Origin: Vicinamibacteria bacterium
GTDB taxonomy: Bacteria > Acidobacteriota > Vicinamibacteria > Fen-336
Assembly: GCA_023701125.1 (NCBI GenBank)
Contig: JAMPXO010000009.1
Span: 5,264-69,263, forward strand
Length of the DNA stretch: 64,000 nt
Direction: 5' to 3'
This document shows positions 39,200-45,607 of the stretch, one piece after another (within the stretch, counting starts at the first letter, position 1; every line of letters begins with the position of its first letter). A program made the position numbers and the translations under genes. The notes under the pieces were generated by a model. It worked only from the letters and a program-made list of their open reading frames with translations. It searched no databases and had not been told where the DNA came from.

Positions 39200-40003
39200 A
39201 TGGCCGTCGAGACCATCCGCAGCCGCAGCAACCCGCTGTTCCGTCGCCTCCGCGAGCTGCGCGAGCACGCCGCGGACGACGGCCTCGCGCTGCTCGAGGG
39301 GCCGAAGCTGATCGAGGAGGCGCTGCTGTCCGGCGTCACGGTGCTGGAAGTGGCGGCATCGCCGCGCGCCGAACGCTCCCAGCGCGGCGCGCGGGTGCTG
39401 CGCGAGCTGGCGGCGCGGGGCGTGACCGTGCGCGCGATGAGCGACGAGCTGGTGGCCTCGCTGTCCGAGGCCGAGTCGAGCCAGGGCCTGCTGGCGCTGG
39501 CGGCACGGCCGGCCTTCGACGAGGCGGCGCTGTTCGCGGGCGTGCCGCTGATCGCCGTCGCGGTCGGCGTGCAGGACCCGGGCAACCTCGGTGGCCTGCT
39601 GCGCACGGCGGAGGCCGCGGGCGCCACCGGCGCCTACCTCACGCCCGGCTGCGCCGACCCGTTCGGCTGGAAGGCGTTGCGCGGCTCGATGGGCAGCGCG
39701 CTGCGCCTGCCTCACGTGCGCGGCGTCGAGGCTGCCCTGGTCGTGTCGCGACTCAAGGCGCGCGGGGTGCGGGTGGCCGCGACCGCCACGGATGCGGCCC
39801 AGGCCTACGACGAGGCCGACCTGAAGCGGCCCGTCGCGATCCTGCTCGGCAACGAGGGCGCGGGGCTGCCGGACGAGTTGCTGCGGGCAGCGGACATCAC
39901 GGTGCGCATCCCGCTGGCCGGCCACGCCGAGAGCCTCAACGTCGGTGTCGCGGCCGGCGTCGTGTTGTTCGAGGCCGCCCGACAGCGGCGGCAGCGGCCC
40001 TAG
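39200..40003 (+). CDS. TrmH/SpoU-family RNA 2'-O-methyltransferase
   Basis: SPOUT motifs ([44 protein letters not shown]). Confidence 0.8.
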
Positions 40004-41415
40004 TCGGAAGCTCCGTCCCGGGCCGCGGGCTCCGCCTGCAGCTTCTCGAGCCGGTACTGCAGCGTGCGGCGGGTCAGGCCCAGCAGGCGGGCCGCGCGAG
40101 TCACGTTGCCGCCGGCCTTGACCACCGCCTTGCGGATCAGGCTGCGCTCGACCGCGTCGAGGTCGATGCCTTCGTCCGGGATCTCCAGCGCCTCGAGCGC
40201 CTGCGCACTCCCCCGCCGCACCGGCGCGATGCCCGCGCGCACGGAGGCCGGCAGGTCCGACGGCCCCAGCAGGTCGCCGTCGGAGAGCAGCACCGCGCGC
40301 TCGAGCACCGACTGCAGCTCGCGGACGTTGCCGGGCCAGTCGTAGGCGACCAGCGCCCGCAGCGCGTCGGGGTCCACCTGCTTGCGCGCCTCGGGCCGGC
40401 ACAGCCGGTCGAGGAAGTGCTCGACCAGCAGCGGGATGTCCGGCCGCCGCTCGCGCAGCGGCGGCAGCCGCACCGGGATCACGCTGAGCCGGTAGTACAG
40501 GTCCTCGCGGAAGCGACCCTCGCGGACCTCCTTCTCGAGATCGAGGTTGGTGGCGGCCACGATGCGGACGTCGATCTTGATCCGCTCGGTGCCGCCGACG
40601 CGCAGGATCTCGCGCTCCTGCAACGCGCGCAGCAGCTTGACCTGCAGGTCGCGGCGCAAGTCGCCGACCTCGTCGAGGAAAAGGGTCGACCCGTGGGCCT
40701 GCTCGAACAGCCCGATCTTGCGCACGTCGGCGCCGGTGAACGCGCCCTTCTCGTGGCCGAACAGCTCGGCCTCCAGGATCGTCTCCGGCAGCGCCGCGAT
40801 GTTGACCGCCCAGAACGGCCGGTCACGGCGGCCGGAGAGCTGGTGGATCGCGCGCGCGACCAGCTCCTTGCCGGTGCCGCTCTCGCCGTGGATCAGCACC
40901 GACGACGCCGAGTCGGCGACCTTGTGCACGATGCGGAACACCTCCTGCATCGAGCCGTGGCCGCCGACGATGTTCTCCAGCCGATAACGCTCGGTGAGCT
41001 GCTCCAGGAGCCGGCGGTTCTCGCGCACCAGCTCGGTGCGTTCCAGCGCCCGCTGCAGCACCAGCAGCAGCTCGTCGCGCTCGAGCGGCTTGGTCAGGTA
41101 GTCGAAGGCGCCGCGGCGCATGGCCTCGACCGCGCTGTCGATCGAGCCATGCGCGGTCATCAGGATCACGCACGCGCGGGGGTCCGCGGCCAGCAGCTCC
41201 TCGAGCAGCTCGATGCCCGACAGGTCGGGCATCTTGAGGTCGGTCAGGACCAGGTCGAAGGGCTGGGCGAGGGCCTGCTTGAGCGCCTGTCGCCCCGTGG
41301 CCGCGAGGGCGACCTCGTAGCCCTCGCCCTCGAGGATCAGGCGCAGGATCTCGCGCTGGGTGTCCTCGTCGTCGGCGACCAGCAGCCGTGCCTTGGGAAC
41401 GGCCGCGGCGCTCAC
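40000..41415 (-). CDS. sigma-54-dependent response regulator (NtrC family: REC, AAA+ and HTH)
   Basis: GESGTGKE Walker A, GAFTGA, C-terminal Fis HTH. GTG start overlaps the kinase stop (GTGA). Confidence 0.85.
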
Positions 41416-45295: not shown

Positions 45296-45607
45296 CTACT
45301 CCTCCTCCAGGGTCGCGCGCAGCGGGTAGCCGGCCTCGCGCGCCTCGTCGTGGACGCGGTCGACCTTGGTCTCCGCGATCTCGTGAGTATAGGTGCCGCA
45401 GACACCGACGCCCTGCGTGTGGACGAACATCATGACGCGGTGGGCCTCGGCCGGCGACTTGTCGAAGATGTTCTCCAGCACGTGGATCACGAACTCCATC
45501 GTCGTGTAGTCGTCGTTGTGCAGGAGCACCCGGAAGAGCGGCGGCTTCGCCGTCTTCGTGCGGGTCTTCTCCTGGACGTTCCCCTGCCGGTCCGGGCTGC
45601 GTGCCAT
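45296..45607 (-). CDS. clpS: ClpS adaptor protein
   Basis: FRVLLHNDDYTTMEFVIHVL... Confidence 0.85.
   Translation of the reverse strand: MARSPDRQGNVQEKTRTKTAKPPLFRVLLHNDDYTTMEFVIHVLENIFDKSPAEAHRVMMFVHTQGVGVCGTYTHEIAETKVDRVHDEAREAGYPLRATLEEE

Follow-up and report, generated by a model that had tools for sequence, protein, structure and literature searches.

In Escherichia coli, clpS-clpA, which encode the N-degron adaptor and the double-ring AAA+ unfoldase of the ClpAP protease, are found near aat, the gene of the Leu/Phe-tRNA-protein transferase. Among two-component systems such as ZraS/ZraR, AtoS/AtoC and NtrB/NtrC, zraSR stands next to a sigma-54 promoter that drives zraP. A tie between the protease and a response regulator has been described in Salmonella, where PhoP is a ClpS-dependent ClpAP substrate (Yeom et al.; PMC6719616). 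The present analysis concerns a locus in which clpS and clpA run directly into the genes of a histidine kinase and of an NtrC-type sigma-54 response regulator; it lies in a 64-kb stretch of DNA from a metagenome-assembled genome of a Vicinamibacteria bacterium (GenBank assembly GCA_023701125.1, contig JAMPXO010000009.1, positions 5,264 to 69,263), here called the window and analysed at its full length. As judged from gene order, codon overlaps and promoter motifs, these four genes probably form one transcription unit, produced by a lineage-specific rearrangement in a single genus-level clade of Vicinamibacteria, with co-transcription from the clpS promoter and translation of the kinase by reinitiation.

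All four genes are encoded on the minus strand of the window, whose G+C content is about 72%. The co-directional arrangement and the two GTGA overlaps announced by the original prediction are borne out by the open reading frames, by Pfam and NCBIfam searches and by the sequence itself. The features of the array, in coordinates of the window, are the following:

45616 to 45621, minus strand: -10-like hexamer TACAAT, 8 nt upstream of the clpS ATG, a presumed promoter element by sequence reading.
45296 to 45607, minus strand: clpS, N-degron adaptor of ClpAP, 103 amino acids (Pfam ClpS, PF02617, E = 1.7e-33).
45299 to 45308, minus strand: Shine-Dalgarno-like GGAGGAGGAG at the 3' end of clpS, just before the clpA GTG (sequence reading).
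42944 to 45295, minus strand: clpA, double-ring AAA+ unfoldase, 783 amino acids (TIGR02639 and Pfam domains).
42947 to 43039, minus strand: Pro/Ala-rich tail at the C-terminus of ClpA, differing in sequence and length between loci (alignment of the window with loci L001, L082 and L085).
42944 to 42947, minus strand: GTGA overlap of the clpA stop (TGA, 42946-42944) and the kinase start (GTG, 42947-42945).
41412 to 42947, minus strand: histidine kinase, a sensor kinase of 511 amino acids (Pfam and alignment).
41412 to 41415, minus strand: GTGA overlap of the kinase stop (TGA, 41414-41412) and the regulator start (GTG, 41415-41413).
40000 to 41415, minus strand: response regulator, NtrC-type sigma-54 enhancer-binding protein, 471 amino acids (Pfam).

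The proteins are ordinary representatives of their families. In ClpS, residues 21-99 match positions 2-80 of the 80-position Pfam profile, as in a ClpS adaptor; the NCBIfam ClpS models match with E = 1e-34, yet slightly under their cut-offs. The translation contains the HNDDYTTMEF pocket motif, LLHNDDYTTMEFV and FVHTQG, a set that points to an intact N-degron pocket and whose residues we take to be the equivalents of D35, D36, M40 and H66 of the E. coli protein. The next product passes the ClpA model TIGR02639 (1002.1 bits for a cut-off of 993.15), whereas ClpB models stay far under theirs; its Pfam domains are Clp_N, AAA, AAA_lid_9, AAA_2 and ClpB_D2-small, with no ClpB-type middle domain, and its two Walker A motifs read GDPGVGKT and GPTGVGKT. 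The D2 ring carries KLIGIGRDD at the position expected for the IG(L/F) loop, which, from this position and by comparison with E. coli ClpA, is presumably the loop that docks on ClpP; clpP itself is not in the 64-kb window. The ClpA sequence is 100% identical to that of NCBI entry MCM2254716.1, from a Vicinamibacteria metagenome-assembled genome. The kinase consists of a first transmembrane segment, a periplasmic domain of about 145 amino acids, a second transmembrane segment, HAMP (E = 9e-16), HisKA (E = 1e-9) and HATPase_c (E = 4e-21), the two hydrophobic segments preceding HAMP as in a transmembrane sensor kinase of the HisKA type; H278, in AHEVRNPLN, is invariant across 17 sequences. The regulator has the NtrC-type order of a receiver domain (Response_reg, E = 3e-30) with D59 in LVLTD59LKMP, an AAA+ domain (Sigma54_activat, E = 8e-70) with the GAFTGA motif, and a Fis-type helix-turn-helix (HTH_8, E = 2e-12).

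The geometry of the locus is that of an operon, with co-directional genes, zero intergenic space, overlapping stop and start codons and no terminator. The clpS TAG (45298-45296) is followed directly and without a gap by the clpA GTG at 45295; clpA and the kinase gene, like the kinase and regulator genes, share four nucleotides, and GAGGG (41420-41424) lies 4 nt upstream of the second overlap. Overlaps of this size are ordinary in these genomes, being found in 5 of 15 same-strand adjacent gene pairs in the gene table of L082. The GTG start of the kinase is supported by an alignment with 16 homologues, which have an N-terminus of equal length, and by the invariant residues T20, L22 and L24, all located upstream of the next possible start; the start codon is GTG in the window, L001, L082 and L085. 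In these same four sequences, the GTG is preceded by no Shine-Dalgarno and, over 400 nt, by no -10 motif; a sigma-70 scan is unreliable at 72% G+C, and the promoter consensus of Acidobacteria is poorly known. No intrinsic terminator-like site was found on the minus strand between 39500 and 46500, no Rfam element between 39000 and 47000, and RNA folding at the clpA-kinase junction gave no unusual structure (z = -0.5). Neither an internal promoter nor a terminator was thus found at 42947, and co-transcription with translational coupling, as initially proposed, is plausible for genes that abut or overlap without a terminator or a recognisable internal promoter.

Two ENA assemblies and several Logan contigs, as well as the metagenome-assembled genomes GCA_048499135.1 and GCA_023384615.1, carry the four genes in this order and with these 4-nt overlaps, and the kinases of these array-bearing close relatives are 90-96% identical to that of the window. 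The GTGA overlap of clpA and kinase is also found in L082, L083 and L085, and the junction is kept in at least three species-level lineages. As the junctions are identical in independent assemblies, the array is real and not an assembly artefact. Its bearers form one genus-level clade of soil Vicinamibacteria (Acidobacteriota). Ratios of nonsynonymous to synonymous substitution rates (dN/dS) of 0.13-0.25 for all four genes, together with a shared dS of about 0.3 (window against L082 and L085), mean that all of them are functional and maintained and that they have been linked for an equal time. In the alignment of the window with L001, L082 and L085, the ClpA tail that follows HFxFAP shows indels and low identity, while the CCGTGAT of the junction is invariant. 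However, a neighbourhood of about 40 kb is fully collinear within the clade, so that retention of the junction there says nothing specific about selection for it.

Outside this clade, the two halves of the array are found apart. On the ClpA side, the sample consists of four clpSA loci of other Vicinamibacteria, with ClpA proteins 70-76% identical, and no kinase or regulator gene follows clpA in any of the four:

L168: clpA is followed by aat, with a GTGA overlap at the clpA stop; bpt lies 2-3 kb downstream.
L171: clpA is followed by aat, with the same GTGA overlap; bpt lies 2-3 kb downstream.
L170: clpA is followed by a DinB_2 gene and then aat; bpt lies 2-3 kb downstream.
L169: clpA is followed by an alpha/beta hydrolase gene; no aat or bpt was called.

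The N-degron clusters span 5657-12631 in L168, 5683-12396 in L170 and 5668-11485 in L171, bpt being recognised by its ATE_N and ATE_C domains. Neither aat nor bpt is present in the 64-kb window or in the 21-kb loci of its close relatives. The Pro/Ala-rich tail of ClpA is found in all sampled Vicinamibacteria, shorter elsewhere and longest in the clade of the window.

On the kinase side, about 160 loci were gathered by a kinase-family profile scan of species-representative genomes and JGI metagenomes, followed by tblastn with the four window proteins. The kinase family is large and well conserved, with more than 120 clusters of about 500 amino acids and 60-66% identity from Vicinamibacteria-type metagenomes, and in almost all of the loci the kinase and regulator genes are both intact and side by side. 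Members of the pair are 57-65% identical in Vicinamibacteria and 32-47% identical in Nitrospirota, Desulfuromonadales/Geobacter, Syntrophales, Methylomirabilota and Pyrinomonadaceae; the overlap of kinase and regulator genes is also seen in relatives, for example at 11512-11515 in L002. None of the ten Vicinamibacteria loci that extend 2.7 kb or more beyond the start of the kinase gene (L002, L004, L006, L088, L089, L092, L093, L094, L096 and L097) has ClpA beside the pair, nor is it adjacent upstream in any of about 140 loci from Nitrospirota, Desulfuromonadales, Syntrophales, Pyrinomonadaceae and others. All-against-all clustering of the open reading frames of the roughly 160 loci yielded no universal partner beyond the pair, only clade-specific neighbours and a small secreted protein. 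The kinase of the window is 59-65% identical to its relatives, for a median of 67% among those relatives, and its ClpA 72-78%, for a median of 73%; because the two identity spectra show the same pattern, the clade would be one of many roughly equidistant lineages and the kinase is most simply read as the orthologue.

What the separate pairs possess is a promoter of their own. In all ten relatives with a definable start, TAGACT, TACACT or TATGCT precedes the kinase ATG, with a gap of 6-13 nt that is 7 nt in seven of them, against a background rate of 2e-4 per nt for this motif in these sequences; in most of these relatives, a -35-like TTGCGG or TTGCAG lies about 17-18 nt above it. Such a spacing implies an mRNA with little or no leader. 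In the clade of the window, the pair occupies the usual position of aat, the promoter motif is gone and the start has become a GTG overlapping the clpA stop. In the ancestral state, as comparison with relatives shows, clpS-clpA was usually followed by aat, with bpt nearby; the kinase-regulator pair stood apart, with a sigma-70-type promoter of its own and a leaderless ATG start, and in several lineages it preceded a small gene for a secreted CusF/DUF5666-like protein, driven by a sigma-54 promoter. Since the halves are separate in every other sampled lineage and joined in one clade, gene order indicates that the fusion is derived and recent. The arrangement is as unusual as the original prediction held, being absent from about 150 kinase-family loci of other lineages and from the four other Vicinamibacteria clpSA loci; a separation of clpSA from the pair in relatives, which had been named as the finding that would count against a link, holds for all but the closest relatives, in which the array is kept. 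It is therefore not a conserved cluster: the gene order is found only where the whole neighbourhood is collinear and, approached from either side, is absent in more distant relatives.

The small secreted gene bears on the probable function of the two-component system in these relatives. In four Vicinamibacteria loci, the next gene behind that of the regulator, in the same orientation, encodes a secreted protein of about 125 amino acids with weak CusF/DUF5666 similarity, and this gene is equipped with a Shine-Dalgarno and with a near-consensus sigma-54 promoter 60-75 nt upstream:

L003: small secreted gene at 3160-3616, sigma-54 promoter TGGTATGGCCCTTGCT.
L006: small secreted gene at 12881-13335, sigma-54 promoter CGGCATCGTCCTTGCT.
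L089: small secreted gene at 6420-6879, sigma-54 promoter TGGCATCGGCCTTGCC.
L094: small secreted gene at 6264-6733, sigma-54 promoter TGGCACCGGCCTTGCT.

Weak homologues of the small protein are also encoded behind the regulator in loci of Nitrospirota and Thermodesulfobacteriota. The small gene is a probable direct target of the two-component system in these relatives, and by analogy with ZraSR-ZraP we infer a module for periplasmic or envelope, perhaps metal, stress. The assignment goes no further than the class: the kinase reaches 212 bits with AtoS (cut-off 646) and 187 bits with ZraS (cut-off 479), and the regulator 492 bits with AtoC (cut-off 714), 441 with NtrC (cut-off 559) and 430 with ZraR (cut-off 760), so that both stay below every cut-off of the ZraSR, AtoSC and NtrBC equivalogs. 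The solved structures closest to the regulator are those of Aquifex NtrC1 (1NY5) and NtrC4 and of ZraR (1OJL); the periplasmic sensor domain has no relative in Pfam or by PDB sequence search. No homologue of the small secreted protein was found in the window or in the 21-kb loci of its close relatives. A search of the window for the sigma-54 consensus (GG-N10-GC), with at most two mismatches, returned 20 matches for 18.9 expected, none credibly placed and none upstream of clpS. Two of these were considered as promoters and rejected. The one inside clpA (43230-43245, TGGCGATCACCTTGCA) belongs to this chance-level count, and synonymous changes have removed its -12 element in L082, where the gene order is the same. 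The other (TGGCCTTGTCCTTGCT, 24276-24291), antisense within a PPK2-like gene and about 200 nt from a PAS-GGDEF gene, was judged to be a chance match.

How such an array would be expressed follows from these motifs. L082, L085 and L168-L171 likewise have TA(C/G)AAT or TAAGAT 5-11 nt before the start of clpS, and this conservation in relatives makes the clpS promoter the obvious driver of the fused array; the TACAAT of the window is likely the element from which the entire array is transcribed, and the clpS mRNA made from it would be leaderless or nearly so. Transcription would start there and read through the four genes. ClpA would be translated from its strong Shine-Dalgarno, whereas the kinase, which has none, would be made at a low level through termination and reinitiation at GTGA, and the regulator would be coupled in like manner with the assistance of GAGGG. 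The level of the two-component system would now track the transcription of clpSA. With the promoter lost and the ATG replaced by an overlapping GTG, co-transcription with reinitiation is the most economical model, and the fusion is most readily taken for a tolerated and perhaps neutral rearrangement of operons; no sign was found of a mutual action of protease and signalling system. Several points weigh against this account. Co-transcription and reinitiation are both read from sequence, and promoters of Acidobacteria are poorly defined at 72% G+C, which leaves room for an atypical promoter inside clpA. Coverage of the genome is that of the 64-kb window, and a second kinase-regulator pair, aat, bpt, rpoN and the small sigma-54-driven gene may lie elsewhere. 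Finally, some selection on the junction would also fit the persistence of the fusion over a dS of about 0.3 and a CCGTGAT that stays invariant while the adjoining ClpA tail varies.

An alternative is that the fusion is adaptive, coupling N-degron proteolysis to a sigma-54 regulon, with ClpSAP degrading the regulator or the kinase, or with both halves being needed in a fixed ratio under the same stress. Such a circuit would account for a junction kept in at least three species-level lineages and for purifying selection on all four genes, and it has a precedent in PhoP of Salmonella (PMC6719616); however, that precedent involves no gene linkage, the linkage itself is absent in every relative outside the genus-level clade, the collinearity of the clade deprives junction retention of its weight, no sigma-54 promoter precedes clpS and the sole sigma-54-like match in clpA is not conserved in L082. 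A functional circuit is, on this balance, unlikely. Slightly less probable still is the more specific version in which a sigma-54 envelope or metal stress system was recruited into the N-degron operon in place of aat as a real regulatory link, its dosage being set by the clpSA promoter and by reinitiation, and the regulator or kinase perhaps being a ClpS/ClpAP substrate, so that a feedback like that of PhoP and ClpSAP would be hard-wired in one transcript. The co-regulation of proteolysis with a sigma-54 regulon, or control of the regulator by ClpA, that the original prediction had suggested accordingly finds no support in an array confined to one collinear clade, and the recommended look for sigma-54 promoters produced no credible one in the window.

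The opposite possibility, that the genes are merely adjacent and that an unrecognised promoter in the 3' part of clpA drives the kinase and regulator independently of clpSA, would be in keeping with the frequency of promoters within upstream genes in bacteria and with the limits of the sigma-70 scan mentioned above. It has to contend with the absence, within 400 nt, of the type of promoter that relatives use for the pair, with the conversion of an ancestral leaderless-type ATG into a GTG overlapping the upstream stop, and with the chance-level and non-conserved character of the sigma-54-like site at 43230-43245; we hold it to be improbable, though a little less so than the functional circuit. 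The same modest weight is given to the pair behind clpA being an extra, diverging copy, with the canonical promoter-bearing pair and its small secreted gene located elsewhere in the genome. Both the small sigma-54-driven gene and a credible sigma-54 promoter are indeed missing from the window, as they are from the 21-kb loci of close relatives, and a second, distant pair lies nearby in L002, L092 and L093; but the identity of the kinase to its relatives is only slightly under the median among those relatives, in the same pattern as ClpA and as expected of an orthologue, and the dN/dS of kinase and regulator is as low as that of clpA. A chimera of assembly or binning that joined unrelated regions might be suspected in any metagenome-assembled genome; the identical junction in independent NCBI, ENA, JGI and Logan assemblies from different samples makes it exceedingly improbable here.

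The surroundings of the array show further particularities. The 78-nt interval between clpS and a divergent ArsR-family gene (45686-46054, itself overlapping an AHSA1/SRPBCC-SnoaL gene at 46051-46827) contains a perfect 16-bp palindrome, TTTAGTTATAACTAAA, at 45662-45677, about 40 nt upstream of the clpS -10 element. L082 has a near-identical palindrome upstream of its ArsR gene, with asnB between palindrome and clpS; because the palindrome stays with the ArsR gene when asnB separates it from clpS, it is probably an ArsR operator. In L168 (about 5630-5652) and L171 (about 5640-5662), the clpS -10 element TAGAAT forms half of a 21-bp palindrome, ATTCTACGGC-N-GCCGTAGAAT, which suggests an operator overlapping the clpS promoter and which is not found in the window. 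An AsnB-like asparagine synthase gene is divergent from clpS in close relatives (5364-7292 in L082); the window has none beside clpS, and a 61%-identical AsnB-like gene lies about 5 kb away, at 50651-52543. This difference in placement means that the upstream flank of clpS has also been remodelled within the clade. At the other end of the array, the regulator gene and a convergent SpoU-family RNA methyltransferase gene (about 39200-40003, plus strand) share a terminal palindromic CTAG at 40000-40003, where their stop codons overlap, leaving no space for an intergenic terminator. Farther away in the window, a PPK2-like polyphosphate kinase gene (23482-24390, minus strand) is divergent from a PAS-PAS-GGDEF diguanylate cyclase gene (24492-25814, plus strand).

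Around the kinase pair of other lineages, the TTGCGG-N17/18-TAGACT pattern upstream of the kinase start is found at about 9975-10012 in L002, and in L004, L088-L092, L094, L097 and L003. The presence of promoters directly at the starts of both kinase and clpS genes suggests that many mRNAs of Vicinamibacteria are leaderless or nearly so. The second pair of a kinase and a sigma-54 regulator, distant in sequence (about 30% and 44% identical), lies 2-4 kb upstream of the orthologous one, at 5637-8086 in L002, 50-2304 in L092 and 1798-4307 in L093, and in L002, L004 and L092 a gene for a large REC-PAS protein is divergent from the kinase. In L061 (Thermodesulfovibrionia), a Clp-type double-AAA+ ATPase is encoded at 4540-7134, about 2.3 kb downstream of a homologous pair; this ATPase shares 39-41% identity with ClpA and, with about 85 additional amino acids inserted, may be ClpB- or ClpC-like. 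This single case was treated as a coincidence.

Were the fusion functional, it would offer a natural example of a signalling system whose expression is governed by a housekeeping protease operon, and it would point to a response regulator as a ClpSAP client beyond enterobacteria. As the evidence stands, its main value is that of a clean and datable example of operon remodelling, in which a leaderless, promoter-bearing two-component unit would have lost its promoter, changed its ATG into GTG and become coupled to an unrelated upstream gene in the position of aat. For the poorly studied Vicinamibacteria, the by-products may be more generally useful than the fusion itself: the clpS-clpA-aat/bpt cluster, the sigma-70-type leaderless promoter pattern, and the module made of a kinase, a regulator and a small sigma-54-driven periplasmic protein.

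In comparison with described systems, the locus combines familiar parts in an unfamiliar order. Like the clpS-clpA(-aat/bpt) N-degron cluster, it has clpS immediately upstream of clpA, a ClpS with the pocket motif, a ClpA that passes TIGR02639 and a -10 element before clpS; where relatives usually have aat after clpA, with a GTGA overlap in two of four, the window has the kinase and the regulator. With ZraS/ZraR-ZraP, AtoS/AtoC and NtrB/NtrC, the pair, whose best NCBIfam matches are AtoS/ZraS for the kinase and AtoC/NtrC/ZraR for the regulator, shares a membrane HisKA kinase and a REC-AAA+(GAFTGA)-HTH_8 activator, but it remains far below their equivalog cut-offs, and its sensor domain has no Pfam or PDB relative. 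The sigma-54 promoter of relatives drives an adjacent small periplasmic protein comparable to zraP; this protein is CusF/DUF5666-like rather than ZraP-like, and its gene is missing beside the pair in the window. The likeness to Salmonella PhoP/PhoQ-ClpSAP is that of a ClpS-ClpAP protease functionally tied to a response regulator, the kind of tie that the earlier speculation had in view; in Salmonella, however, the link is post-translational and without operon linkage, and PhoP is an OmpR-type regulator and not a sigma-54 activator. A search of the literature for operons joining clpSA, two-component and sigma-54 genes, and for sigma-54 in Vicinamibacteria, found no description of the arrangement, which appears to be rare, phylogenetically shallow and hitherto undescribed, with parts that are all ordinary members of known families. 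It resembles most a generic operon fusion with 4-nt ATGA/GTGA coupling, in which the downstream gene has no Shine-Dalgarno, starts on the upstream stop and has lost its own promoter; the mechanism would be undistinguished, and the fusion uncommon only in its content, a housekeeping protease joined to a sigma-54 two-component system.

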